Under the pieces are notes generated by a model. That model was given only the letters and a program-made list of their open reading frames with translations, ran no database searches and had not been told where the DNA came from. Of a stretch of DNA of 64,000 nucleotides, positions 3,963 to 55,195 are shown piece after piece (position 1 is the stretch's first letter; the number at the start of each line of letters is the position of its first letter). This DNA is from Candidatus Eiseniibacteriota bacterium (lineage in GTDB: Bacteria > Eisenbacteria > RBG-16-71-46 > CAVPCR01): the NCBI GenBank assembly GCA_963823555.1, contig CAWGMA010000001.1, forward strand, positions 1,952,001 through 2,016,000. The letters are read 5' to 3'. Both the position numbers and the translations under genes were made by a program.

Positions 3963-6900
3963 CTAGCCGAGAGCCGGCTCGGGCGTGGCGTCACCGTCGA
4001 GGACCTCGCCCCCCGACCCGTTGCCACCACCGGCAACCGCCAGCTCCGCCTCGCCCTGTCCCTGATCCGCGTCCGCCGCTGTCTCGACCACGTCCTCCCC
4101 CTCGGACAGCTCGCCGTGATCGAGTCGCACCGAGACCAGCTTCGACACCCCCGGCTCCTCCATCGTCACCCCGTAGAGGCGCTCGCATGCCTCCATCGTG
4201 CGCTTGTTGTGGGTGATGACGATGAACTGTGTGTCACGCTGGAACTGACGCAGCAGCTTGACGAAACGATCTACGTTGGCATCGTCGAGCGGCGCATCCA
4301 CTTCGTCCATGATGCAGAATGGGCTGGGCTTGACCAGATAGATCGAGAACAGGAGTGAGATGGCAGTCAGCGCCCGCTCGCCCCCCGACATCATGCGGAT
4401 CGAACGCAGAGCCTTGCCCCGCGGGCGGGCCATGATCTCGATGCCGCCGTCGAGATCGTCGCCGACCAGGGAGAGCTCGGCCTCTCCGCCTTCGAAGAGG
4501 GTGGAGAAGACGCGCCGGAAGTTCTCCTTCACCTGGCCGAAGGTCTGACTGGAAGAGCTCGGAGGCGGTCTGGTTGATCTTCTCGATCGCCTGCGAGGAG
4601 CTCCTCCCGGGCAGCCACCAGGTCGTCACGCTGCTTGGTCAGGAAGTCGAACCGCTGCTTGACCTCTTCGTACTGCTCGATGGCAAGGAGATTCACCGGA
4701 CCGATCCGGCGTAGCCGCTCCTTGAGATGGTTGAGCTCGGCCAGGGCCTCACCGGATCCTGCCCTTCGGCCAGCACTTCGTTGGTCTCGAGGAGCTCAAT
4801 GTCGTACTCCTCACGGATCCGGGCAGCGATGGCCTCGATCTCGCCGCGAGCGCGTTCCAGATCGAGCTCGTCCTTGTGCACGCCTTCGAGCAACCCGTCG
4901 AATCCGTGTCGAGCTTCGCGCGCCGCCTTCTCTTCGGCGACAACCTCCGCCCGCGCTTCACCCTCGGCGGTCTCGAGCGCGCGCACCCGGACCTCCTTCT
5001 CCTCGCGAGCCAGCATCGCCTCGGCGATCTGGGTCTCGTGCTCGGCAATCGATGCGGCCAGGTTCGCCAGTAGCGTGTCTCCGTTCTCGATCTCGGCGGT
5101 CAGGCGAGTCATCTCGCCTTCGATGTCCGCCAGCTCGCCGCCCAGGCGCTCGTGCTCGTTCCGTACCTCGGCGAGTCGGGCGGAAAGCGTGGTCCACGCA
5201 ATACGGCTCTCCTGCTCGGCGGCCAGGCGGAGATCACGCTCTTCCTCGAGTCGAGTCACCTCGGTCTCGAGATCGGCACAGTCGGCGGCAAAGGTCTGGC
5301 TCTCGCGATGGGAATCATCGAGCGCCGTCCCGAGTGCCGATTCACGAGCCCCCAGATGCTCGAGCTCGACGGCAAGGGCCGAGACGGCCCCCTCGAGATC
5401 GACGATCACCTCGGCCTTGATCTGGGCGGCCAGAGCCTGCTCGGCGTGCGCCTTCTCGCGGGCGAACACCGCTTCGCGCTCCACCTCATGACGGCTCCTG
5501 AGCTCGCGCTGAGCCCCGGCGCTCGCCTCGCGCTCAGCCCTGAGCTCGGCCTCCTCCTGTCTGAGGGCGGCAATCTGCGTCCTGAGGGGCACCAGTTCCT
5601 CCTCGGTGGCAGCGATCTCCTGCTCCCGGGACAGGACGCTGGACCCCGTACCGTCGCCGCCACTGATCGCGCCCGCTCGCGTCCATAGCTCGCCCTCGAG
5701 GGTGACTACCCGATACCCGGCCGCCTCGGGTCGCTCGATGAGCGAGCGGGCACTCGCCCGGTCGCTCACCAGGATGACATCGCCGAGCAGGTAGTGGATC
5801 GCGCCTGCGAATCGCGGTTCATGCGCTTCGACGAGATCGCTGAGGCGACCGAGAAGGCCATCGCCGGTGGGAATGTCACCGTCCGTTCTGGCTGCGATGC
5901 CGGCGAGCGGGAGGAACGTGGCCCGACCCCCCTCGCTCTGGCGCAGATGATCGATATGGCCGGCCGGGGCGTCGCGATCGTCGATCACGATGGTGCCGAC
6001 GCCGGATCCCAACGCCGTTTCCACCGCGTCGACCAGCTCGGCTGGTACGCGCATCAGCTCGGCGACCGTACCGTGAATGCCCGATGGCCGGCCACCTGCG
6101 AGCAGTGTCTGCACGCCCCGCGCGAAACCCTCGTAGCGGCGGCGGAGATCGAGGAGCACGGCAAGGCGCGACTCATGGGCCGCTGCGCTCTCGCCGAGCG
6201 CCATCAGCTTCTGGCCTGCCTGTTCGGCAGACAGGGTGAGTGCGATGGTGCGCGCCTCGATCTCATCGAGCTCGGACCGGGTCGCATCACAGGCGGCACG
6301 GGAGGTGGCGAGCTCGGTGGCCGCCCGGTCGCGCTCGGCCTCAGCGCGCTCCTTCTCAGCGCGTACCTGCTCGAGATCTGCGGCGATACGGTCACGCCGT
6401 CCGGAGATTTCCTCCTGCTTGCGTCGAGTTTCGGCCAGCACCGTACGGCGCTCGACATGGTCCTCGACCAGCCCCAGGTTGAGCTGCTTCTTCTCGGAGA
6501 GCTCGATGCGGCGCTGCTTCCACATCCGCTCGATCTCGCTCCGCGCCTCCTCCCGCGAGCCGAGCTCAGCCTCGCTCGCCGCCGCCACCGCGCTCAGCCG
6601 CGAGAGCTCTCCGGCCGCCGTCTCCTCCGCCGCTGCAACGATCCCCCGCCGTTCGTCCAGCCGCGTGAGCGTCGCGCGGGCCTCGCTGGTGCGGGTCTGG
6701 GTCGCCAGGTCTCCGCTCGCGCAGCACCCGCACCTCACTCGACCACTCGGCTACCAGGCGATCGTGCCGATCCAGCTCCTCCTGCGCGACCCTGAGCTCG
6801 CGCTCGAGATCGGTCTGGCGGAGGCGCCGCTCCTCGACGGTCAGCTCGTAGCCGGAGATCCGCGCGCGCTCGCCCTCGAGATCGGTTCGCGATCCGGCCA

Positions 6901-7642
6901 GCCGCTCGGCGAGTTCGTCGCGCCGGGCCGCGAGTTCGTGCACGCGCTGGCGGCCCAGGGCCAGGTCCAGATGGCGAATGCGCTCGATGGTGCGCTTGTA
7001 GCGGCGGGCTCGCCCCACCTGCCGGCCAAGCGAGTGAGTCTCGCGCTCGACCTCGCTGATGATGTCGGCAACGCGCACCAGATCGGTCTCTGTCGCCTTG
7101 AGCTTGAGCAACGCCTCGTGCTTCCGCGCCTTGTACTTGGTGATTCCGGCGGCCTCTTCGAGGATCTGCCGGCGCTGTCCCGAGTCATCGGAGAGCACCG
7201 ACTCCACCATCTCCCGGGCAATCAGCGAGTAGCCGCTCGATCCGATCCCGGTGTCGAGAAGCAGGTCCCGCACGTCGCGAAGGCGACACGGCTTGCGGTT
7301 GAGCACGTAATCGCTCTGCCCGGAACGGAACAGCCGGCGGCCAACGACCACCGTGGAGTACTCGACCGGAAGGAGGTTCTTCGTGTTCGAGAAGGTGAGA
7401 AAGACCTCGGACATCCCCAGCGGCTTGCGGGTCGCGGTCCCGTTGAAGATCACGTCCTCCATGGAGTGCCCGCGGAGGAGACGCGCCGACTGCTCGCCGA
7501 GAACCCAGCGGATGGCGTCGGAGAGGTTCGACTTTCCGCACCCGTTGGGCCCGACGATGCCGGTTACCCCTGCCCCGAAGCGCAACGTGAGCTTGTAGGG
7601 AATGGACTTGAACCCGAAGATCTCGAGCTTCTCGAGGAACAT
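3963..7642 (-). CDS. smc: chromosome segregation protein SMC (about 1225 aa, broken by four apparent frameshifts)
   Basis: N-terminal GFKS and GPNGCGKSN; hinge region; GPVNLLAIEQYEE; MSGGE and DEVDAPLDD. Frame changes near 6712, 4751, 4597 and 4551. Confidence 0.93.
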
Positions 7643-7747
7643 CAGCCCTCCTGGCAGATGCCGGCAGGTGAATCGATCAGCACCCTGCCGGAATGTCCCG
7701 GCGCGCCTCCGGCGCACCGGTGGGTCGGACGAGAAATCGAATCGCGT

Positions 7748-10477: not shown

Positions 10478-11914
10478 CTATTTCCCCATATCACAAAGAT
10501 CGGTCGCCAGGTCGTCTAACTTGGGCTTCACGGTCAAAGCACCCACAATCAGCTCGGCATCGCCCGGAAGAAGGGTCCGGACATCGAGGAGAAGTTGTCC
10601 CCCTTCGATACGTCCAAGCACGGCCGGATGGCCGCACCTCAGGCCGGTCTCCAGATCCTCCACGCTCCCCGCACCGGGACGCGGGCTCAAGCCGACGGCG
10701 ACCGATGGGATCGCCGCCATCGGCAGGGCGCCGCCACCTACCCGGCTCGTCGTCTCCACCACGCCCACTTCGAGATCGGCCCGAACGGCCGTGATGGCCG
10801 CGGCCAGCGCCGCCGCCTCCGCCCCGAGATCCTCCTTCGAACGCGCCAGCAGCCTCAGAGTCGGAATCTCCACCCACGCGCGCTCGGGCTCCAGATAGGC
10901 GCGGAGCGTCGCCTCGAGGGCTGCGATCGAGAACTTGTCGAGGCGCATGGCGCGTGCCATCGGATCCCGCGCGAGGCGGCGGATGAGCGATGCCGATCCG
11001 ACCATGATGCCCGCCTGCGGCCCTCCGAGCAGCTTATCACCCGAGAACATGACGATGTCGGCCCCGCATGCAAGGCTGTCCCCGACGGTTGGTTCGTGAC
11101 CGATCCGAACTCCCAGGGCAACCAGTGCTCCGCTTCCCAGATCATGGGCGACTTGGAGCCCACGCGACCGGCCGAGAGCGACGAGCTCGGCCAGTCCCGC
11201 CTCGGCAGTGAACCCGTCCATGACGAAGTTCGAGCGATGGACCTTCAAGATGAGCCCGGTGCTGGGTCCAATCGCCTTCGCGTAGTCTTCCAGGTGCGTC
11301 TTGTTGGTCGTTCCAACCTCCCTGAGCCGGGCCCCAGACCGCGCCATGATATCGGGGAGACGGAACGAGCCGCCGATCTCGATGAGCTCTCCGCGGGAAA
11401 CCAGGACCTCGCGACCTGACGCGAGCCCCCCCAGCGTGAGCAACACGGCCGCCGCGCAGTTGTTGACGGCAAGCGCGTCCTCCGCGCCGGTGATCTCGAT
11501 CAGGAGATCGCGGATGGTGTCGAGCCGCGATCCGCGTTCACCCCGCTCGAGGTCGAACTCGAGGGTCGAGTACCGGGCCGCCGCATCGTGCACCGCCTTC
11601 TGCGCCATCTCGGAGAGCACCGACCTGCCGAGATTGGTGTGAATCACGACACCCGCCCCGTTGATGACGGGCCTGAGCCCCCGGCTGGCCAGCATCCGGG
11701 CCCGGGCGGCGGCGCGTGCGGCCAGACGATCGACGTCGAGCACCGCCGCGGCCTGGCGGTCTGTCTCCGATTCGCGGGCCAGATGCTCCCGCGCCCAGGC
11801 CAGCACTTCACGAGCCGCTCGCCGCCTGAGGGCGCGGGGAGCGTCCACGTGAACAAGATCGGGATGGGTTAGCAGGGCCTCGACGGCCGGCAGCTGACGA
11901 CGCCGGTCCGGCAT
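10478..11914 (-). CDS. selA: L-seryl-tRNA(Sec) selenium transferase
   Basis: INGAGVVIHTNLGRS, VNNCAAA, SRGELIEIGGSFR, EVGTTNKT, DLGSG, FSGDKLLGGPQAG (PLP Lys); start inferred at MPDRRRQLP. Confidence 0.96.
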   Translation of the reverse strand: MPDRRRQLPAVEALLTHPDLVHVDAPRALRRRAAREVLAWAREHLARESETDRQAAAVLDVDRLAARAAARARMLASRGLRPVINGAGVVIHTNLGRSVLSEMAQKAVHDAAARYSTLEFDLERGERGSRLDTIRDLLIEITGAEDALAVNNCAAAVLLTLGGLASGREVLVSRGELIEIGGSFRLPDIMARSGARLREVGTTNKTHLEDYAKAIGPSTGLILKVHRSNFVMDGFTAEAGLAELVALGRSRGLQVAHDLGSGALVALGVRIGHEPTVGDSLACGADIVMFSGDKLLGGPQAGIMVGSASLIRRLARDPMARAMRLDKFSIAALEATLRAYLEPERAWVEIPTLRLLARSKEDLGAEAAALAAAITAVRADLEVGVVETTSRVGGGALPMAAIPSVAVGLSPRPGAGSVEDLETGLRCGHPAVLGRIEGGQLLLDVRTLLPGDAELIVGALTVKPKLDDLATDLCDMGK

Positions 11915-12076
11915 GCATGATCTCTTGACCCGCGGTCCGCTCTCCCGGCCGGCAACCACGGGTAGCTGGGCGAGAGTCTGTTCCGCGCAAGCGGCGTCGA
12001 AACTCCCGTGTTTCACGGATACGGATCCGGGAGGGGCGGGGCACTCACACCTTGCACTCGCGGGGCCGGGATACGA

Positions 12077-15523: not shown

Positions 15524-16798
15524 CTAGGGTTCAATCGTGGTCACGTACTTGTAGCCGCTCGGCTCGACCGCAAGAACCACCGCCGACTTGACCGCGTTTC
15601 GATTCTCGTCAATCGAGATACGGCCAGTGACGCCGACCAGATCCTTGACTTCCGCCAGCCGGTCGCGGAGCTTGGCTCGCGCCGCCGCCCGCGCCTGAGC
15701 CTTGCCTCCGGCCGGGGCCGGTCCGGCCAGATGCGCGAAGGCCTCGGGGTCCTCGGCGGCGAGTTGCCGGAGACCCGTGACCAGGAGCTGGGCCGCATCG
15801 TATCCGAGCGCCGCCAGGGCGTCCGGCCTGTCCCCGAAACGCGCCGCGAAGGACTGGACGAAGTTCTGCACGTTCGGACTCTGATCCTCGGTCGAGTAGT
15901 GGTTGGAGAAGAACGTGTTGGCGACCGCGTCACCCCCGAGCTTGGTGAGGTCCGGAGAGTCCCATCCATCACCGCCGAGGAGCGGGACCGTGAGGCCCAT
16001 CTCCCGGGCCTGCCGGATGATGAGGCCAACATCGTTGTAGTAGCCGGGCACGAAGATGGCCTCGGGATTCGTTCCGCGCAGGGCGGTGAGCTGCGGGCGG
16101 AAATCGGTGTCCCCCTGGCTGTAGGACTGGTCGCCGACAATCTCACCACCCAGCTCGGTGAAGGTCTTGATGAAGAAGTCGGCGAGACCCATCGAATAGT
16201 CGCTCCGCACGTCACGCAGGATGGCGGCCCGGCGCACCCCCTTGTTCTCGTAGGCGAAGCGGGCCATCACCGTTCCCTGAAAGGGGTCGATGAAGCAGAC
16301 ACGGAAGATGTAGTCTCCGGTCTCGGTCACCTTGGGGTTGGTGGAGGACGGGGTGATCATCGGGACCTTGGCTTCCTGACAGATGGGGGCGGCGGCAAGT
16401 GAGTTCGAACTCGGGATATCGCCCAGAACCGCGATGACGCCATCCTGGCTGATGAGCTTGCGCACGACCGTGGCCGCCTCCTCGGGCCGACTCTGGTCGT
16501 CCTCGATGGTCACCTTGAGTTGCATGCCGCCGATCCCGCCGGCCGAGTTGACTTCGTCGACGGCCATCAGGATCCCGTCTCTCGTCGATTGCCCGAAGGT
16601 AGCGGTGTTCCCGGTGAGACCCATGTAACCGCCCACATAGATCTCGTTCTGCTCACCTCCCCCGCCACAACCGTGAATCGCCACGAGGCCGGCGAATGCG
16701 AGGGCCAGGGACAAGAGGCGATCAGCTCTACTGATTCCAGACCGCGCGGAGGAGCGGCGGTGGGTGAGAACGACATGAGGGCGGCTGAGGGGGGCCAT
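15524..16798 (-). CDS. branched-chain amino acid ABC substrate-binding lipoprotein (LivK/LivJ-like)
   Basis: Peripla_BP_6 pattern (EDDQSRPEEA, FRVCFIDPFQG); lipobox-like IHGC; SD GGAGG before the ATG. Confidence 0.9.
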   Translation of the reverse strand: MAPLSRPHVVLTHRRSSARSGISRADRLLSLALAFAGLVAIHGCGGGGEQNEIYVGGYMGLTGNTATFGQSTRDGILMAVDEVNSAGGIGGMQLKVTIEDDQSRPEEAATVVRKLISQDGVIAVLGDIPSSNSLAAAPICQEAKVPMITPSSTNPKVTETGDYIFRVCFIDPFQGTVMARFAYENKGVRRAAILRDVRSDYSMGLADFFIKTFTELGGEIVGDQSYSQGDTDFRPQLTALRGTNPEAIFVPGYYNDVGLIIRQAREMGLTVPLLGGDGWDSPDLTKLGGDAVANTFFSNHYSTEDQSPNVQNFVQSFAARFGDRPDALAALGYDAAQLLVTGLRQLAAEDPEAFAHLAGPAPAGGKAQARAAARAKLRDRLAEVKDLVGVTGRISIDENRNAVKSAVVLAVEPSGYKYVTTIEP

Positions 16799-16839
16799 GG
16801 ACTTACCTCCCGAGGCTCGAATATCGACCAACTCTTTCT

Positions 16840-19389
16840 ATGACAAGCAAAAGCGGCTGCAATCTAGCATGGGGCAACGAAAGGGGTCAACTCGTGCCAG
16901 GACTGCGCGCAAGAACGAGTCCGGCGGCCCGCGGCCGCCGGCCATCCATCCTCGGCGCCACGAGTGCGGCGCTCTTCCTCCTCGGACTGGCCTGCGCCAA
17001 GCAGCCCGTGACGCCGACCACCAGCACGCTCGAGGCTGAGGCTGCGCGCGCCTATCGCTCGCTGGTGGAATCCCTCGGCATCGACCCCGGTCCCGTGCGC
17101 GGGCGGGTGGTGGTTCTCGATCCTGGACATGGGGGCGGATATCGCGGCGCTTTGGGTCAGAGGGGAACCGCCGAGGCCGACGTCAACCTGGCCGTGGCGC
17201 TCTTCCTGTGGGGACTCCTCGATGACGCCGGTGCCGAGGTCTATCTGACCCGCACGGCCGACCGGGACTTCGTGGGCGGAGAGCTCCATCCCCCCGCGAT
17301 CCAGACCCTGCCGCGCGAGGGAAGCACGGGAAGCATGGTCCCCCACCCGGCCGCGAACACCGCCGCCCCACCCGATTCGCTGCGCTCCGATCTCGCCGCC
17401 CGGATCGCGGCCGCCAATACCTTGAACGCCGATCTCTTCCTCTCGATCCACCACAATGCGGACGCCTCGGGCGATACCACGAGAAACCAGACCCAGACCT
17501 TCTATCGCCTCGGCGATGCCGGCCCCTCGCTCGATGCCGCCCAGGCCATCCACCGCCATCTCATGCGCAATCTGGGCACCGCGCGCGGCCAGGTCCAGCC
17601 CGGGAATTACTACGTGCTGCGCTCCTCGAACGCGACCGCCGCCGTTCTCGGTGAGCCATCCTTCCTCACCAATCCCCTCTTCGAGGAGAAACTCGTCCGC
17701 ATCGATCGCGTCGAGCTCGAGGCCGTCGCCTACTTCCTCGGCATCGTCGACCATTTCGCCCGTGGCGTGGCCCGGGTAGCGGTCCTGGCCCCACGGGACA
17801 CCGTGCTCGATGCGGCGACAACGGTGCTCCGGGCACGCTTCAGCGGAGATCCGATCGATCCCGCCACCGTGGCGCTCACCCTCGACGGCGCGCCGCTCAC
17901 GGTGCGCCCCCATGTCGAGGGTGGGCCAGGTGCGGCGATGGATTTCATCGCCTTCCCGCCGGAGCCCCTCGCCAACGGCCGCCATGTGCTCACCGCACGT
18001 GCCCGCACCTTCGGTGGCAACGGGGCCGCCCCCGCCAGCGCTTCCTTCGTCATGCGCCGCCCCCCGGCCGAGTTGAGCGCCGAACCATGGCCGCTGTGGA
18101 ACGGAACGAACGGGTACGGGCCATTGGGGCTCGTGGTCAGCGTGCGCGACCGATTCGGGCTGGCCGTCGCCGACTCGACGCCTGTCGACCTGACAAGCCC
18201 CGTCCGCGGTCGCCAGTTCACCACAGACGGCCAGGCCTGGTTCCGGCTCGAATCCAGTCCCGCCCCGGAAGCGCGGTGGACCGTCGAATCGGGCCCTGCC
18301 GCGGCAACCTTGCCGGTCATGACGGAAGGCGCACCACCCCATCTGTCGGGTTCGGTCGTCGACCGTTCATCGGGCCGCGGGATATCGGGCGCCGAAATGG
18401 CGATGCGTGATGGCAGAGACTTCCGCGGCCGGACGAATCTTCATGGGGAATATGCGATCTCGCTCCCGACGGATCTTGCGAGCAGCTTGCCAGCCGTTCC
18501 CGGCGAGCTTCGCATCACCGCCCCGGGCTATCTCCCCAGGTCGATGGCTCATGCCCGCGACGCAACGCGGATCGAGCTCGATCCCGTTCTGGGTGGAGTC
18601 CTGCACGGGCGGCGGGTGGCGGTCGATCCGGCCGGAGGTGGCGCCGACCCCGTCGCAACCTCCGCCACCGGGGTGCGCGCCGCGGATACCGCGCTCGACA
18701 TCGCGCTCCGCCTGGCATCGGATCTCGAGCGATCGGGGGCGACGGCCACGCTCCTGCGCGCCGAGGATCGGACCATCCCCGACCTGGCCCGCGTGGAGGC
18801 CGCGGAGCAGGCGGCGGTGGATCGTTACATTCGCATCGGCGCCGATCCGGCCCCGCGCATTCGCCACTACCCGGGCAGCCGGCGCGGAGTGGAGCTGGCA
18901 CGCGCCGCTGCCAGGGAGATCGCCCGGGAGAGCGGACTTGCCCTCGAGGTTCGAGCCGAGGTCACCCCCGTTCTCTTGACGACCAGCATGCCGGCGGTGG
19001 AGATTCTCCTGCCCGCCCCGGCCGGTCCGGCCGGCGAGGATGCCCACCTCGACCCGGATTTCCGCCGGCGCGTGGCGCGCGCGATCCTCCTGGCCGCAGC
19101 CGCCGAGTCCGGTCTCGACCTCGATCGCCAGGCGACCGTGATCCTCAAGTCGGACGCGCCGCACCTGCTCGTGGATGGCATGTTCATCGTCCAGGTAAAT
19201 GACGGGCAGGGCCGGGCACGCGGTATCGATCGCGGCACCGAGCACGAGGTCCTGCCGCTGGCAGAGGGGATGGCGGCTGGACCCCAGGTCACGCGGTTCA
19301 GGGTGGCGGCCCCTCCTCCCGACACCATCACGGTCACGGTGCCCATGAATCCAGCGGCCCCGGCCCCGACCGGTCGAGCCCACGAATAG
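16840..19389 (+). CDS. N-acetylmuramoyl-L-alanine amidase, multidomain, probable lipoprotein
   Basis: VVLDPGHGG...EADVNL, FLSIHHNA, YYVLR...AVLGE; second degenerate amidase domain (VAVDPAGGG); LGLAC lipobox; start uncertain. Confidence 0.85.
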   Translation: MTSKSGCNLAWGNERGQLVPGLRARTSPAARGRRPSILGATSAALFLLGLACAKQPVTPTTSTLEAEAARAYRSLVESLGIDPGPVRGRVVVLDPGHGGGYRGALGQRGTAEADVNLAVALFLWGLLDDAGAEVYLTRTADRDFVGGELHPPAIQTLPREGSTGSMVPHPAANTAAPPDSLRSDLAARIAAANTLNADLFLSIHHNADASGDTTRNQTQTFYRLGDAGPSLDAAQAIHRHLMRNLGTARGQVQPGNYYVLRSSNATAAVLGEPSFLTNPLFEEKLVRIDRVELEAVAYFLGIVDHFARGVARVAVLAPRDTVLDAATTVLRARFSGDPIDPATVALTLDGAPLTVRPHVEGGPGAAMDFIAFPPEPLANGRHVLTARARTFGGNGAAPASASFVMRRPPAELSAEPWPLWNGTNGYGPLGLVVSVRDRFGLAVADSTPVDLTSPVRGRQFTTDGQAWFRLESSPAPEARWTVESGPAAATLPVMTEGAPPHLSGSVVDRSSGRGISGAEMAMRDGRDFRGRTNLHGEYAISLPTDLASSLPAVPGELRITAPGYLPRSMAHARDATRIELDPVLGGVLHGRRVAVDPAGGGADPVATSATGVRAADTALDIALRLASDLERSGATATLLRAEDRTIPDLARVEAAEQAAVDRYIRIGADPAPRIRHYPGSRRGVELARAAAREIARESGLALEVRAEVTPVLLTTSMPAVEILLPAPAGPAGEDAHLDPDFRRRVARAILLAAAAESGLDLDRQATVILKSDAPHLLVDGMFIVQVNDGQGRARGIDRGTEHEVLPLAEGMAAGPQVTRFRVAAPPPDTITVTVPMNPAAPAPTGRAHE

Positions 19390-19577
19390 CGGCCGGGGAA
19401 TCGCTTCTTGCCCCCAGGAAAGAGCAAGGAACCTCTTCACCTGCTGTGGGTTGTTCTTTTACAATGTTTTACCGGTCTTGCCCCCATTTCGACCGTATCC
19501 TCTACTGGCTGGAACTGGCGACGGCAAGAGCCCACCATCCCCCCACAAAGCCCCTGAGTCGAGAAAGGGTCGTCCCG

Positions 19578-20234
19578 ATGAATCCAGGGCAGTCGACATC
19601 CGGCCGCGCATCGGCGTCCACCAGCCGCCGCCGCGGTGTTTTCCGCGAAGCCGTGGTCATTGTTCTCTGCGGAACGATGCTCGGTCTGGTAGCCAACACC
19701 ATCTCGCCGCGCGGCATCCCGCTCATCGGTGACTTCTCCCGGGGGGCGGCCCTCGCCAATCGCAGCGCGGAGGAGCTGGCAGCGCTCCCAGCCGAGATCG
19801 AGCTGGCAGGCGTCCAGCGCGTGGTCGAAGCCCTCGCAGCGCGATCCGCAGACGAGGATTCAGCTCCGGCCGATGCCGCGAGCGACAACGGGAAGGCGAG
19901 TCCAGCGGAGGCGGGCGGCGACCTCGAGGACGCTCTCCTGTCCCAGGCCGTTCTGATTGATGCCCGCTCTCCCGACATGTATACCTCGGGTCACATCCCG
20001 GGAGCGCTCAACCTGCCGGTGTCCGATTTCGACGCCGCCTATCCCGAGCTCAAGTCTCAGCTCAAGACCGCTTCCCTCATCGTGGTCTACTGCGATGGTG
20101 GCGACTGCGAGCTTTCGCATGATCTGGCCACCATGCTCAAGGACCTGGGACACGGCCCGATCCAGCTCTTTGCCGGCGGATTCGATGCCTGGATGGAAGC
20201 AGGGCACGACATGCGCGCGGGGCAAGAACCATGA
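19578..20234 (+). CDS. membrane-anchored rhodanese-like domain protein
   Basis: N-terminal TM followed by NTISPRGIPL; LIDARS...GHIPGALNLP; VVYCDGGDC; FAGGFDAW; stop overlaps next start (ATGA). Confidence 0.9.
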   Translation: MNPGQSTSGRASASTSRRRGVFREAVVIVLCGTMLGLVANTISPRGIPLIGDFSRGAALANRSAEELAALPAEIELAGVQRVVEALAARSADEDSAPADAASDNGKASPAEAGGDLEDALLSQAVLIDARSPDMYTSGHIPGALNLPVSDFDAAYPELKSQLKTASLIVVYCDGGDCELSHDLATMLKDLGHGPIQLFAGGFDAWMEAGHDMRAGQEP

Positions 20235-20701
20235 TCTCGCGCTCCCTCCTGGCGCGGCTCCTGGGCATCGCACTGGGCGCCATCTTCCTGTATGCGAGCG
20301 TATCGAAGGTCATCGATCCGGCGGCCTTCTCGCGCACCGTCTACCACTATCAGCTCCTGCCGCCGGCAGCCGTGAATCTGGTCGCCATCGTCCTGCCCTG
20401 GATCGAAGCGCTGGTCGGCGCCCTTCTCATCTTCGGGCTCAGGGTGCGGGGCGCATCGCTGCTCGCCGTGATCACGCTCATCTTGTTCCTCGGCGCCATG
20501 AGCTCCGCTCTCGCCCGCGGCCTCAACATCGACTGCGGGTGTTTCAAGGCCGAGGGCACCAAGCTCGGACTCGACCGCATCATCGGCGACCTGGTCCTGC
20601 TTGCAGCCGCGTTCTTTGTCTATCGGGAATCCGCCCGCGTTCCCCAGCCGGGACGGGAGGCTTCCGGGTTCATGCCATCTAGCGTCAAGGAGTCCTCATG
20701 A
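20231..20701 (+). CDS. MauE/DoxX family membrane protein with CGC motif
   Basis: IFLYASVSKVIDP, VLPWIE, ARGLNIDCGCF; four hydrophobic segments; ATGA overlaps on both sides. Confidence 0.9.
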   Translation: MISRSLLARLLGIALGAIFLYASVSKVIDPAAFSRTVYHYQLLPPAAVNLVAIVLPWIEALVGALLIFGLRVRGASLLAVITLILFLGAMSSALARGLNIDCGCFKAEGTKLGLDRIIGDLVLLAAAFFVYRESARVPQPGREASGFMPSSVKESS

Positions 20702-22059
20702 TCCGTCGTGTCGCGTTTCTCCTCATTCTCTTGTTCGCCGCGGCGGCGAGCCTCATGCTCGCTGGCCGCCCGGGCCCAGCGGCCGGGGAGAACGAGATCG
20801 TCGTCCTCGCCACGGCATCGAACCGCGGCGAGGTCGACCCCTGTGGGTGAAAGTCGGCCCGCAAGGGAGGGCTGGCCCGGAGGGCTGCCCTGATCGACTC
20901 GCTCCGCCGCCTCAATCCGAACGTTCTCGTTGTCGATGCCGGCGGCATGATCAACCCGAACAAGGCGAAGAGCCCGCGCTATGACCAGTTCGTGTTCAAG
21001 GCCATGAACCGGATGGGGTACAACGCGGCGACCGTCGGCCAGCTCGAGCTGGATCGCGGGACCGAATACGTCCGGGAGCTCGCACCGCAGCTCGACTGCC
21101 CGGTCGTGGTCTCCAATGCCAAGGCCACGGCCGGTGAGACCCCATGGCGGGAAACAGCGATCGTCACGGTTGGCGGTCGCAAGTTCGGGATCCTCGGCCT
21201 CGTGAGCCAGGACTTCGGTTCCGGCAAGGAGGCGCTCGAGGATGCCGGGTGGACCATCGAGGATCCGATGGCCGCCGTGGCGCGACTGCTACCCGAGCTC
21301 GAGAAGCAGTCCGATGTCACGATTGCCCTCGCTCATCTCCAGGCCGCCGACCTCGATCGCCTGGTGCGCGAGGGAAAGGGCATCGATCTGGTGATCGCCG
21401 GCCTCAACCCGCATCCGATGAATACCCAGCCCGACGATGCGGTGACGGCCATCCTGCGTCCCGGACAACGAGGCGAATACATCGGTGTCGCTCGTATCAC
21501 ACCGGGTGCCGGCGGCGGACCGGTCACGGTCGATGGGCTCGAAGCGGTCATGCTCGAGATGAACAAGTACCCCGACGATCCGGAACTGGCCGCCGAGCTC
21601 GAGGCCTTGAAGAAAGAGGTCGACGCGGAGACCCGCAAGGCGCAGATCGAGCGCGAGCTCAAGGCGCAGGATGGGCTCATCCTCGGTCAGGATCGCTATC
21701 TCGGCAACGAGACCTGTGCCCGTTGCCACTCAGGCGAGATCGACTGGTGGAACTCGGACCCTCATGCCAAGGCCTTTGCCACCCTCGAGAAGGAGGGCAA
21801 GCAGTCCGATTCAGCCTGTCTCCGCTGCCACGTGACCGGGTACGAGCAGCCCGGCGGATTCGGTGGCATCGGCACCACCGCCAACATGAAGAGCGTCCAG
21901 TGCGAGTCCTGCCACGGGATGGGGACTCTGCACGACTGGACGGGGAAGTCGGCGTCGGTGCCGGGGGAGGCGACATGTCGCGCTTGCCATGTCGCGGAAT
22001 GGAGCCCTGATTTCGAGTATGGGGCCTACTTGAAGCGCCTCGGACACGGCACCAAGTAG
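20698..22059 (+). CDS. predicted selenoprotein: UshA-like (CxU) domain fused to tetraheme cytochrome c (c554-like), 453 aa
   Basis: ATG 20698 MIRRVAFLLILLFAAAAS signal peptide; ...GEVDPCG-TGA(20848-20850)-KSARKGGLARRAALID...VVDAGG continues in frame into ORF 20947..22059; CARCH, CLRCH, CESCH, CRACH. Confidence 0.88.
20851..20899 (+). promoter_or_regulatory. candidate bacterial SECIS element
   Basis: hand fold: lower stem AGUCGG/UCGACU; upper stem AGGGC-(U bulge)-GGCCC, loop GGA, GGGCU-GCCCU; G-led loop starts 28 nt after the UGA. Confidence 0.65.
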
Positions 22060-22112
22060 TCGAGCTCGAGGGCTGGGGAGAGCAGCGCCGCGCTGCCCTC
22101 CCCCGCCCTCCC

Positions 22113-23624
22113 CTATCGCCTGGACCGGATCGGCACGATTCCCGCTTGCGACAGACGCAGGAGCTGCACCTCGGCAAGATCGGGGGGGACATTGAGGATG
22201 CCGGACCCGGGGCGGGCTCTGGCGGCGAGGGCCTGGCGAATGTCCGCGCTCGACCCGAGGTCCCCGCTCATGGCCTGGGCCACCAGAGTGGCGGAGACGT
22301 AACCGCGGATCGCGTTCACGTCGGCATCCCGCCTGTACTCGCCTCGAAACCGCTCGGCGAAGGTCTCTCCACCGAGCGCCGGCGCGCCGTAGTAGCTGGC
22401 CGCGAAGACCGCCTCATCGAGATACTCGTCGGCCACGTCGGCCACCTCTTTCATGGCCATTTCCTCGAGCGCGAGAAGACGGGCCCCGACCTCGTAATAC
22501 GTGAGCTGCGGGATCACGCTCATCAGCTCACGCGGAGATCCAGGCATGAAGACCGCATCCGGAAGCAGCTCGCGCAGACGCTCCAGCGGCGCACCGAAGT
22601 TGACGTCGCCGCTCCGGTAGACCTCGCGCCCGACGACCGCGCCACCCTGTTGCCCGACGGTGGCGGCAAAGCGATCGGCGAGGGCCTGGCCCTCCGGAGT
22701 GTCCGGCGTCAGGACCGCCAAGCGCTGATAGCCGAGATCCCGGACGGCGGCGCGGGCCAGCGCCTCCGCCTGGAGCTCGCGCGGGGGTACGGCCTGGAAG
22801 ATGCCGGGACCGATGCTTCCAAGATCGTCCCGGCCTGCGGCGGGGGTGACGAGCGGAATGCCCGCGGCCGCCGCCGCGGCGGCGGCCGATACCGTTGTGG
22901 TCAAGAGGGTAGTGCCGCACATCGCCCCCACACCATGGCGCGCCAGCTCTCCTGCGGCGCGCGCACCGACGATCGGATCCCCCTGCGTATCCCCGATCTC
23001 CAGCATGAGGGGAAAGCGTGCGTCCCGGTTGTGCTCGGCAATGGCAAGGGCCGCTCCTGCGGCGAACGATTCGCCTTGGAAGGCCATCCGGCCGTTGATG
23101 GGCGCCAGCACACCAATCGTGTAGAGCGCCAGTGGGCGAGGCGGGATCGGCATGCCGGCAACCGCGGCAACGGCCGCCGAGTCCGCTCCCAGAGCCCGAG
23201 CGGCAGCGAGAAGATCATGCGTGACGGGCCGGCCTTCCCGGTGGGCGTACTGCCCCAGGGCGAGCAATGCGGGCGCGGTCCCCGAACCACGCGCGGTGGC
23301 CTGGCAACCGAGATAGAGGAGCTCCCCGTCGCTCAATCTGCGGGGTGGGAGCTGGGTCATGAGTTCCGCCGCGCGCGGATCCGGGATGCCCTCACCTCCT
23401 TCTGCCAGGTAGAGCGCCCATTGCGCCGCACGATAGGTGAGACCGGCGTCCAGGAGGGATTGCGCGTAGCGGGCCGTGGCATCCGCCCACGCCCGGTCAT
23501 GACGCGCCGAGAGCGCGACGGCCGGCGGCTCGGAGGCAGCCGTAGGCGCATAGGAGACCAGGATGACACCCCAGATGGCGGCCCCGGCCCAGGCGCCGCA
23601 TCGGCGGAAGACTGCACGTATCAC
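22113..23624 (-). CDS. periplasmic-binding-protein type 1 fold protein (LpoA/LppC- or LivJ-like)
   Basis: IGVLAPING, DTQGDP, RLAVLTPDTPEG, PDAVFMPG; signal peptide. Confidence 0.7.
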   Translation of the reverse strand: MIRAVFRRCGAWAGAAIWGVILVSYAPTAASEPPAVALSARHDRAWADATARYAQSLLDAGLTYRAAQWALYLAEGGEGIPDPRAAELMTQLPPRRLSDGELLYLGCQATARGSGTAPALLALGQYAHREGRPVTHDLLAAARALGADSAAVAAVAGMPIPPRPLALYTIGVLAPINGRMAFQGESFAAGAALAIAEHNRDARFPLMLEIGDTQGDPIVGARAAGELARHGVGAMCGTTLLTTTVSAAAAAAAAGIPLVTPAAGRDDLGSIGPGIFQAVPPRELQAEALARAAVRDLGYQRLAVLTPDTPEGQALADRFAATVGQQGGAVVGREVYRSGDVNFGAPLERLRELLPDAVFMPGSPRELMSVIPQLTYYEVGARLLALEEMAMKEVADVADEYLDEAVFAASYYGAPALGGETFAERFRGEYRRDADVNAIRGYVSATLVAQAMSGDLGSSADIRQALAARARPGSGILNVPPDLAEVQLLRLSQAGIVPIRSRR

Positions 23625-24154
23625 GACGTCATGTCTCCTGGTTCCTCCAGCTCGCGGTGCCCCCGCGCCAGATCGATGTAGTGTGCGGCCGACTCGCGGA
23701 ACCCCTTGAGCACGCTGTCATCGAGATTCCGCACGACCTTGGCCGGAACACCGGCGACGAGCGAATGCGCTGGAATGCGCCGGCCTTCGAGCACGACCGC
23801 CCCGGCGGCAACGATGGACCCGGTGCCGATCACGGCCCCATTCAAGATCACGGCGCCCATTCCAATCAGGCACAGGTCCTCGACCGTACAGCCATGAAGG
23901 ATGACCCGGTGGCCGACCGTCACCTCGTCCCCCACCCGTGTCGGCCATTCACCGTAGTCGACGTGGACGATACACCCGTCCTGGATGTTGGTCCGCCGGC
24001 CGATGCGGATCCAGTTGACGTCCCCCCGCACCGTGGAGTGATACCAGATGCTCGAGTCCTCGCCCAAGGTCACATCGCCAATGATCGCGGCATCCGGGGC
24101 GATGAAGGCCGCGCGCACCACATCTGGGATCTTGTCGCCGTAGGGACGGATCAT
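23621..24154 (-). CDS. gamma carbonic anhydrase family (YrdA-like)
   Basis: hexapeptide repeats; RGDVN, NIQDGCIVH, VTVGH, ILHGC. Confidence 0.93.
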   Translation of the reverse strand: MIRPYGDKIPDVVRAAFIAPDAAIIGDVTLGEDSSIWYHSTVRGDVNWIRIGRRTNIQDGCIVHVDYGEWPTRVGDEVTVGHRVILHGCTVEDLCLIGMGAVILNGAVIGTGSIVAAGAVVLEGRRIPAHSLVAGVPAKVVRNLDDSVLKGFRESAAHYIDLARGHRELEEPGDMTS

Positions 24155-54012: not shown

Positions 54013-55029
54013 CTATCCCCCACCCCCGTCCGCTTCCGGGTCCTCTTCCGGCTCATCGTCTCCAGGGGGCTCGCTCGTCCCGAAGAAGGCCAGGATCTCG
54101 CGGACCACCGTGGAGTCGGTGGGAACCCCGTCGAGCAAGTAGAAGGTCCGCCCATTCAACGGCATGGGGCCATCGACCCCGAGCTGGACATTGGACCAGT
54201 TGAGGAATCTCCCGGAACTCCCCCCGAAGAATACCTGGCGTGCGTGCCCGATGCGCAGCGGGTAGTTCTCGACGCGCGGCTTGTGGCTGGCGACGATGAT
54301 ATCGACCCCGGGAACTTCCTCGGCGATCGAACGCACGGCCAGGTAACGAGCATGGGCGAAGCAGACCACGAGGCCGGCCCGGCGTCGCATCTCCGGCATG
54401 AGGGCGACGAGGGCGGCATTGGGCGGCAGCACCTTGACTCCGGGCTGAGACGCGGCCTGATCCTGCCACACCTCCGGTTCGAGAATGCTCGTGAACGCGA
54501 TCATCGTCTCGCCGGCAGGTCGCAGCACATAGGGTTTGAACAGCGGCTCCCGCGTCGTGGCGTCGACGATATTGGCCGAGACCCAGGCGAGATCGGCGTG
54601 CGGAGCGATCAGGTCTTCCAGGTAGCCTCGACCCCGCGCGAGCTCCACCTCCCCCACGCCGAGTGCGGAGTAGCCGAGCTTGGCGTGCATGGCGATCAGG
54701 AAGGCCTCGACCTGCGGGTCGGGATCCCCGGACGGGAGGAGATCACCGCCGTCGGCAGCCTCGACGAAGGCGGCCGTATCGCGGCTCGCCTCGATGATCG
54801 TCGCTCTCCGCCCCAGGCCCCCGGCCTTCTGCTTGCAGCGACCGCAGGGCAGCATCTCCCCGTGCGTCGCCGCCGACAGGATCAAGTTGAGGTGCTGGAC
54901 ACGGGATGCCGCTGGACCCGGCGGCTCGCTCTGACTCACCCCGGTCGCCAGTCCGCCGCCGGCCAGGGCGCACGGAACGATCACCATCAGGGCGCTCCAC
55001 GCGAGGGGCCGCTCCGGGCGGCGATGCAT
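54013..55029 (-). CDS. exported UshA-like protein, Cys-type paralog (PCGRC) of the selenoprotein, no heme domain
   Basis: HGEMLPCGRCKQKAGGLGRRAT...DGGD...LGYSALGVGEVEL...WVSANI; start uncertain. Confidence 0.8.
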   Translation of the reverse strand: MHRRPERPLAWSALMVIVPCALAGGGLATGVSQSEPPGPAASRVQHLNLILSAATHGEMLPCGRCKQKAGGLGRRATIIEASRDTAAFVEAADGGDLLPSGDPDPQVEAFLIAMHAKLGYSALGVGEVELARGRGYLEDLIAPHADLAWVSANIVDATTREPLFKPYVLRPAGETMIAFTSILEPEVWQDQAASQPGVKVLPPNAALVALMPEMRRRAGLVVCFAHARYLAVRSIAEEVPGVDIIVASHKPRVENYPLRIGHARQVFFGGSSGRFLNWSNVQLGVDGPMPLNGRTFYLLDGVPTDSTVVREILAFFGTSEPPGDDEPEEDPEADGGGG

Positions 55030-55104
55030 GCCTGCTCTGGGGTTTGGCAACTCTGATCGAGCCTGGGGAACCTGGACCGGACCTAACAGGATGATGAGGG
55101 AAGA

Positions 55105-55195
55105 TGGCGGAGAGAGAGGGATTCGAACCCTCGAGACGGTCTCCCGTCTACACGATTTCCAATCGTGCACCTTCGACCAGCTCGGTCATCTCTCC
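55105..55195 (-). tRNA. tRNA-Ser (GGA)
   Basis: CACGA-TTGGAAA-TCGTG; long variable arm; CCA. Confidence 0.95.

Follow-up and report, generated by a model that had tools for sequence, protein, structure and literature searches.

The last gene of a three-gene operon in the window (the whole 64,000-nucleotide stretch of DNA that was analysed) contains a single in-frame TGA codon which is almost certainly read as selenocysteine. The UshA-like gene is therefore a real selenoprotein candidate, held in databases only as a truncated 370-residue cytochrome. Its product would carry a Cys-Gly-Sec loop on a nucleotidase-type scaffold fused to a four-haem domain of the cytochrome c554 type, and for its activity we tentatively favour oxidoreduction of sulfane sulfur, at somewhat less than an even chance. 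The analysis adds a lost hydrolase motif, a probably open haem and sulfur-transfer neighbours, which give a short list of candidate activities, together with a partition of haems and metal site between paralogues in the host genome.

Results

Reading frame and operon structure of the UshA-like gene

The frame runs from an ATG at 20698 to a TAG at 22057–22059 and is open save for one TGA at 20848–20850, around which the sequence GEVDPCG-TGA-KSARKGGLARR continues in frame into the downstream ORF. When read through it encodes 453 residues with CxxCH motifs at residues 340, 374, 402 and 427, confirming the frame put forward in the original prediction, in which an ORF carrying four CxxCH motifs was extended upstream to an ATG overlapping the stop of the MauE gene (ATGA). 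An AAGGAG sequence is present at 20687. A basic stretch followed by a hydrophobic one makes the N-terminus, by eye, signal peptide-like, in keeping with the export signal that had been proposed, and the structure predicted for the 453-residue protein begins with a helix at residues 2–20. The three genes, encoding a rhodanese, a MauE/DoxX protein and finally the UshA-like protein, are coupled by ATGA overlaps at their junctions (Table 1), and a search for sigma-70-like promoters returned two sites as against 0.5 expected in shuffled sequences. As had been anticipated of standard gene callers, the UshA-like gene is truncated in annotation: the public protein collection holds solely a 370-residue form from this contig (P0002), and our own simple gene caller produced the identical truncation. 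Elsewhere in the window, smc (4693–7717, minus strand) is broken up between two or more reading frames (ORFs 6566–7717 and 4693–6738), probably through a frameshift or an assembly indel.

Table 1. Features of the UshA-like gene, its operon and the nearby selA gene (positions are those of the window).
Feature	Position	Strand	Basis or remark
Sigma-70-like promoter match, weak, 9/12	19436–19465	+	Upstream of three-gene unit; consensus match only
Membrane-anchored rhodanese-domain protein, YCxGGxC loop	19578–20234	+	Pfam Rhodanese E 1e-16; likely start ATG 19578
MauE/DoxX membrane protein, DCGCF motif	20231–20701	+	Pfam MauE E 1e-27; ATGA overlaps both ends
UshA-like predicted selenoprotein with c554-type tetrahaem domain, NF041198-like, 453 residues	20698–22059	+	
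Signal peptide-like N-terminus, end approximate	20698–20787	+	Sequence; model helix 2–20
Cys49-Gly50-Sec51 (TGT GGG TGA)	20842–20850	+	Sequence, conservation
SECIS-like hairpin, loop GGA, first loop G 29 nt after UGA	20868–20891	+	
5'-Nucleotidase/SoxB-type metallophosphoesterase fold, degenerate metal site	20788–21639	+	Structural match, motif mapping
Cytochrome c554-like domain	21685–22056	+	CxxCH at 21715, 21817, 21901, 21976; plus conserved His356, His412, His450
selA (selenocysteine synthase), near but outside operon	10478–12016	-	528 bits vs TIGR00474

Evidence that the in-frame TGA encodes selenocysteine

The selA gene had been noted about 9 kb away and was found there (Table 1); selB, selC (tRNA-Sec) and selD, named originally as genes to look for, also scored over their cut-offs, as did selA, in the host genome (G000, 92.5% complete), and the host selD itself carries an in-frame TGA. 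Among 140 distinct related genes, drawn from 136 loci with a search pattern that demanded Cys or a stop at codon 51, this codon reads TGA in 107 (74 four-haem, 32 haem-less and one cut gene) and TGC or TGT in 33 (20 four-haem, 12 haem-less and one cut), so the Cys or TGA expected of homologues at this position was observed. Because of the demand made by that pattern, an unfiltered set comprising the best 150 profile-search hits (158 aligned stretches) was also examined. In the 105 of 158 stretches covering the site, Cys49 was present in 98 and Cys51 in 101; the region around codon 51 was absent from 53 of the 158, as truncation would cause. On a quick tree the Sec and Cys states need at least 12–14 switches, and the same TGA is found in an orthologue from the same genus and in a paralogue within the host genome.

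In the bacterial SECIS consensus, a hairpin whose loop begins with G follows closely on the UGA. In the family studied here a G opens the hairpin loop at +26 or +29 after the UGA, and both stem pairs that are free to vary synonymously remain intact in 104/104 TGA genes as against 5/16 Cys genes, counts which include kin and hence are not independent. This comparison was confined to genes coding for the peptide GGxARRA, with three TGA and 17 Cys genes lacking it excluded. Across the 104 TGA genes one pair is C-G in 95 and T-A in nine, the other G-C in 66, C-G in 25 and of other composition in 13, and the identical 24-nt hairpin occurs in a 44%-identical paralogue (G000:C1:418353). Folded alone, the 50–113 nt after the UGA were no more stable than shuffled sequences (z -0.65 to 0.88), so that only the comparative test is informative on the hairpin; Rfam gave no match within window positions 16000–24000.

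The originally predicted read-through is thus upheld by the Cys/TGA pairing, by the covariation of the hairpin and by the presence of selA, selB, selC and selD. That the TGA is instead a true stop or a sequencing error (within a pseudogene, or in place of a Cys or Trp codon) is extremely improbable: the split smc gene indicates that the assembly may carry errors and the isolated hairpin is no stabler than shuffles, but the TGA is shared with the same-genus orthologue, the paralogue and most of the related genes, the compensatory hairpin is specific to TGA genes and the selenocysteine machinery is complete. Contigs from four DNA runs consisted of short pieces from relatives, two of which span 20848 with no difference there, a sample too thin to carry weight. 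A noisy genome-wide survey returned further in-frame TGA candidates at G000:C4:69366, C4:74539, C1:1632372, C2:668598, C2:649882, C4:717067 and C3:333396, in motifs reminiscent of known selenoproteins (putatively HdrA-like, thioredoxin/peroxiredoxin-like, glutaredoxin-like and PrdB/GrdB-like).

Relationship to family NF041198

The best family match of the 453-residue protein is NCBIfam NF041198 (253.9 bits, E 2.7e-75). This score is below the curated cut-off of 275, and the protein, in which both the PCG(U/C) motif and the NF041198 domain architecture are present, is a divergent homologue falling short of formal membership of a family already catalogued. Model positions 4–266 match the N-terminal domain and positions 359–518 the haem domain; consequently the UshA-cytochrome fusion, which is real and includes a c554-like haem domain, is part of the catalogued family and cannot be claimed as a novelty of this gene. 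The earlier statement that CxU-containing UshA-like selenoproteins are known from surveys holds good, this being the NF041198 family (the COG0737 CxU selenoprotein family), which passages of three publications (PMC2398784, PMC9312934, PMC13188914) list as CxU without giving a function; the ocean survey among them places the UshA-like family with its 20 main selenoprotein families (PMC2398784). UshA is absent from the main text of PMC13326102 and bioRxiv 2022.07.06.499078. Literature searches joining selenocysteine, nucleotidase and c554 found nothing, although the original family description, NCBI's text for NF041198 or the supplements may already note the haems; those joining MauE, DoxX, rhodanese and periplasmic also found nothing, and those on UshA terms returned only surveys, reviews and unrelated papers, with no function given.

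NF041198-type matches are present in 142/151 genomes of the phylum (a tally that includes genome G039), with a copy over the cut-off in 46/151. Named relatives are mostly from Candidatus Eisenbacteria, the group in which the host genome probably falls, with haem-less forms in Chloroflexota; a natural Cys homologue, P0009, is 56% identical to the window protein. Atlas clusters of the same architecture are found in Verrucomicrobiota, Planctomycetota, Acidobacteriota and others; the 4,625 clusters obtained at 50% identity and E up to 1e-30 may include related nucleotidases. Among 30 longer homologues, five have weak DSBA-like domains (P0066, P0070, P0072, P0196, P0209), six have DUF1573 Ig-like domains (P0078, P0100, P0120, P0160, P0190, P0206) and P0066 carries two UshA-like domains.

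The N-terminal domain resembles a degenerate nucleotidase scaffold

The predicted structure of the whole protein has a pLDDT of 78.5 and a pTM of 0.68, with pLDDT below 50 in the CGU loop (residues 48–54). Its N-terminal part matches the 5'-nucleotidase 2z1a (VIA Z 31.3, rmsd 2.5 Å, 278 residues) and has SoxB as a fold neighbour (Z 27.3). Metal-site positions in the window copy read S41, R43, G83, Q115, L116, H213 and L236, so that of eight phosphoesterase metal or catalytic positions, which in active enzymes form the DxH, GD, GNH, H and GHxH motifs, one (His213) is kept; the positions were mapped on nucleotidase and SoxB sequences. None of the 140 related genes keeps more than four of the eight: the Asn of the GNH motif and the catalytic His are found in none, and the His of DxH in two. 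There is no match to PF02872, the C-terminal substrate-binding domain of the nucleotidases, the region corresponding instead to PF13435, and the SoxB model TIGR04486 scored 37.6 against a cut-off of 550. Cys49 and Sec/Cys51 are, by comparison, family-specific and near-invariant. These sequences indicate that the scaffold is likely inactive as a hydrolase, and the metal site offered originally as one option for the Cys/Sec centre is unlikely in the window copy. The four second-metal positions (83, 115, 213 and 236) nevertheless covary (z 8–11; 264 sequences, Meff 227) and read D-E/N-H-H in 32/140 genes and 54/150 representatives, so some members may still bind a single metal.

Paralogues divide the haems and the residual metal site

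Two close haem-less paralogues are encoded in the host genome. One, at G000:C1:418353-419267 (L022, L157), is a Sec form with a SECIS-like hairpin and an intact DEHH quartet which occupies a slot in the order lptD-like, HU, this gene, cbs (cystathionine beta-synthase), cgl (cystathionine gamma-lyase-like); the other, at G000:C3:713597-714508 (L023), is a Cys form without the hairpin, and it too keeps D-E-H-H. Sec and haems are both present in the window copy, whose quartet instead reads G-Q-H-L. Since orthologues of the same gene order in the lptD-like/HU/cbs/cgl slot have Sec, DEHH and haems together, and the host paralogues divide those parts, the data suggest a partition following duplication in which the window copy kept the haems and lost the residual metal site, the opposite of what happened in the Sec paralogue. 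Among tRNA genes at window positions 54013–55170 (minus strand) there is also a more remote UshA-like paralogue, the third without haems, which has a C-G-R-C motif (26% identity, NF041198 E 3e-35).

The C-terminal domain resembles cytochrome c554

In addition to the four CxxCH motifs, three His residues are conserved among four-haem genes, His356 and His412 each in 94/94 and His450 in 93/94, and no eighth conserved His, Met, Cys or Lys was found within the haem domain in the unfiltered set. Seven conserved His for eight axial sites suggest that one haem likely has a free axial site. When modelled alone (pLDDT 90.7) the domain has cytochrome c554 1bvb as its best fold match (Z 11.6, rmsd 2.9 Å, 124 residues; next Z 6.3), bearing out the tetrahaem cytochrome c part of the original prediction. 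Foldseek returned nothing at E up to 0.001, its top hit being 1ft6 at 1.8e-3, and the NF043010 score was 37.9 against a cut-off of 400. By homology to c554 we infer that the free site would be that of haem 2 (C374-H378), the haem described in bioRxiv 10.1101/641308 as the active site of cytochrome c554. Haem-less copies make up 44/140 related genes, a few of them cut or frameshifted, and being so common they indicate that the CGU domain can exist without haems of its own. Cytochrome c assembly proteins were matched four times in the host genome, where 26 open frames have at least three CxxCH motifs. It contains an open frame with 36 CxxCH motifs (G000:C2:492972-495803, minus strand) and a multihaem cytochrome gene cluster adjoining a cytochrome c assembly gene (G000:C4:289623-301985).

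Gene neighbourhoods

Downstream of 43/70 Sec four-haem genes, on the same strand and no more than 3.5 kb away, there is a cbs gene or a gene of the cystathionine gamma-lyase/synthase family; for 33 of those 43 the distance is within 300 bp. The genes counted had flanks of 1 kb or more, 18 being dropped for short flanks, and the count represents synteny within one phylum in which kin are not independent. The cbs neighbour was over the TIGR01137 cut-off in 2/2 cases tested, and cbs/cgl genes are downstream of 0/18 Chloroflexota genes. The window copy does not adjoin cbs/cgl; it closes the rhodanese-MauE operon, and rhodanese and MauE neighbours occur together in 5/136 loci, which fall in no fewer than two distinct regions of the tree. 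In Anaerolineae/Chloroflexota a haem-less Sec gene is found upstream of aspartokinase in eight loci (L085, L103, L120, L127, L131, L141, L149, L151).

Discussion

A proposed sulfane sulfur oxidoreductase

The function we tentatively prefer, while rating it a little below an even chance, is oxidoreduction of sulfane sulfur in the periplasm by a Sec/Cys-haem enzyme comparable to MccSep, with a housekeeping or detoxification role likelier than a respiratory one. It is favoured because nothing is retained throughout the family except the Cys-Gly-Sec/Cys loop and, in members that have it, the seven-His tetrahaem arrangement, and because MccSep offers an experimentally solved parallel: this enzyme is described as reducing polysulfide and selenite, its haem 2 being ligated by His and Cys and having Sec beside it (PMC13510729). 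In the window protein electrons would pass between the Cys-Gly-Sec loop, borne on a nucleotidase scaffold that is probably inactive, and the four-haem c554-type domain, the likeliest chemistry being the making or breaking of S-S bonds in polysulfide or persulfide. Attached to the linker helix at the point where nucleotidases carry their substrate domain, the haem domain may close over the CGU loop, which would allow Cys49 to approach or ligate haem 2 (C374-H378) at an axial site left free as in c554. Sec51 would then attack the S-S bond and the haems would re-reduce or re-oxidise the Se-S centre, with the operon's two membrane proteins, rhodanese and MauE, possibly supplying sulfur or electrons. 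The gene is near-universal in the phylum, whereas dsrA is over its cut-off in 1/31 genomes and haem-copper oxidase family genes are common (25/31 genomes, with none found in G000), which argues against dedicated sulfur respiration.

Contact between the loop and haem 2 is conjectural, given the low pLDDT of the CGU loop and the pTM of the model; between the two domains our own covariation analysis, on the 264 sequences mentioned above, yielded buried-residue noise and no credible contact. The sulfane sulfur model itself is weakened by the haem-less copies, by linkage to lptD-like genes, by the lack of cbs/cgl genes beside the window copy, by the confinement of cbs/cgl synteny to a single phylum and by the four-residue metal site kept in a third of relatives. 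A bolder version is possible but doubtful: that the UshA-like selenoproteins constitute a second, independently evolved Sec-Cys-haem sulfur oxidoreductase, assembled from a defunct nucleotidase and a c554 domain, in which Cys49 caps the open haem 2 and Sec51 attacks sulfane sulfur, an ancestral enzyme with Sec loop, single metal site and four haems having split here into a haem-bearing and a metal-bearing paralogue that perhaps function together. If these proteins are polysulfide or persulfide oxidoreductases, Sec-haem sulfur chemistry would be far wider than MccSep suggests and would include bacteria that do not respire sulfur.

Alternative activities

The metal-site quartet bears on an unlikely though substantial alternative, a remodelled metalloenzyme with a single metal on Asp/Glu/His/His, Cys/Sec as ligand or nucleophile and electrons from the haems. 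Such an enzyme might be a SoxB-like sulfur-oxyanion hydrolase or an oxygenase, the window copy then being a partner subunit or a degenerate member. Covariation of the quartet, its retention by both close haem-less host paralogues and by the same-order orthologues, and the SoxB fold are consistent with this, but the window copy has G-Q-H-L, the quartet is found in 0/20 Cys four-haem genes and is absent from 49/74 Sec four-haem genes, and neither the first metal site nor the catalytic His survives anywhere in the family; the SoxB profile score is far below its cut-off. A single-metal enzyme fits the relatives and paralogues better than it does the window copy.

Improbable too is a haem-coupled protein thiol-disulfide oxidoreductase replacing DsbA/DsbB, for instance in maturing the LptD-like protein encoded upstream of most orthologues. 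DsbB was found in 0/31 and VKOR in 6/31 genomes as compared with selA in 29/31, so the phylum apparently uses selenocysteine without the usual disulfide-forming membrane enzyme; G000 has neither DsbB nor VKOR and no DSBA match, these absences being from a genome that is 92.5% complete. An lptD-like gene lies upstream in 39 loci (not de-duplicated), nearly as often as cbs/cgl genes downstream, and the two LptD-like proteins examined have two Cys motifs in common. MauE is tied to the disulfide maturation of methylamine dehydrogenase, a further point in favour, as are the weak DSBA-like domains fused in 5/30 long homologues, but those inspected carry a single Cys motif. Nor was there an even-cysteine bias among 401 exported Cys-containing proteins, crudely predicted from home-made gene and signal-peptide calls (0.449 observed as against 0.447 expected); counting zero-Cys proteins gave a z of 4.4 that was driven by the Cys-free proteins.

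The near-universal distribution of the gene is what would be expected of a housekeeping role, and would suit a protein that scavenges peroxide or NO in the periplasm, or that senses redox state, one in which Sec meets the oxidant and the open haem and haem chain recycle it. An open c554-type haem, and a c554-type haem protein from the homologue search with an AhpC/TSA domain (P0061), point the same way, but no peroxidase-type family matched and the neighbours indicate sulfur transfer rather than oxidative stress, making this reading quite improbable. Binding or reduction of soft metals (Cu, Hg) by the CxU pair is very unlikely, since the heavy-metal P-type ATPase (12 loci) and cupredoxin (seven loci) genes that would favour it seem restricted to a single subclade, do not adjoin the gene and are missing from the surroundings of the window copy.

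Comparison with known systems

The window protein has the PCGU motif of NF041198 (UshA_like_PCGU, 'UshA-like (seleno)protein') and both domains match this model, but it is shorter (453 residues against 519 model positions) and is without the D-E-H-H quartet, which roughly one in three of its relatives retains; the survey passages dealing with the family make no mention of haems. MccSep (ExtKL, GSU2937-2936) of Geobacter sulfurreducens is likewise a multihaem c-type selenoprotein of the periplasm, a location predicted for the window protein, and family profile searches gave no MccSep/ExtKL match for the latter. MccSep, whose activity is demonstrated, is described as a tetramer with five haems and with Sec in a C-terminal Ig-like domain (GUP motif; PMC13510729), whereas the window protein would have four haems and an N-terminal Sec. 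With the 5'-nucleotidases (UshA, CD73) and SoxB it shares the N-terminal metallophosphoesterase fold and the linker helix (Z 27–31), but it has lost the di-metal ligands and catalytic His of these enzymes, and a cytochrome stands in place of the C-terminal substrate domain of the nucleotidases. The tetrahaem fold and motif order are those of cytochrome c554 (CycA) of Nitrosomonas europaea; c554, however, is a stand-alone carrier of 211 residues, whereas the domain of approximately 125 residues described here aligns to c554 residues 1–182 and is fused to a Sec domain.
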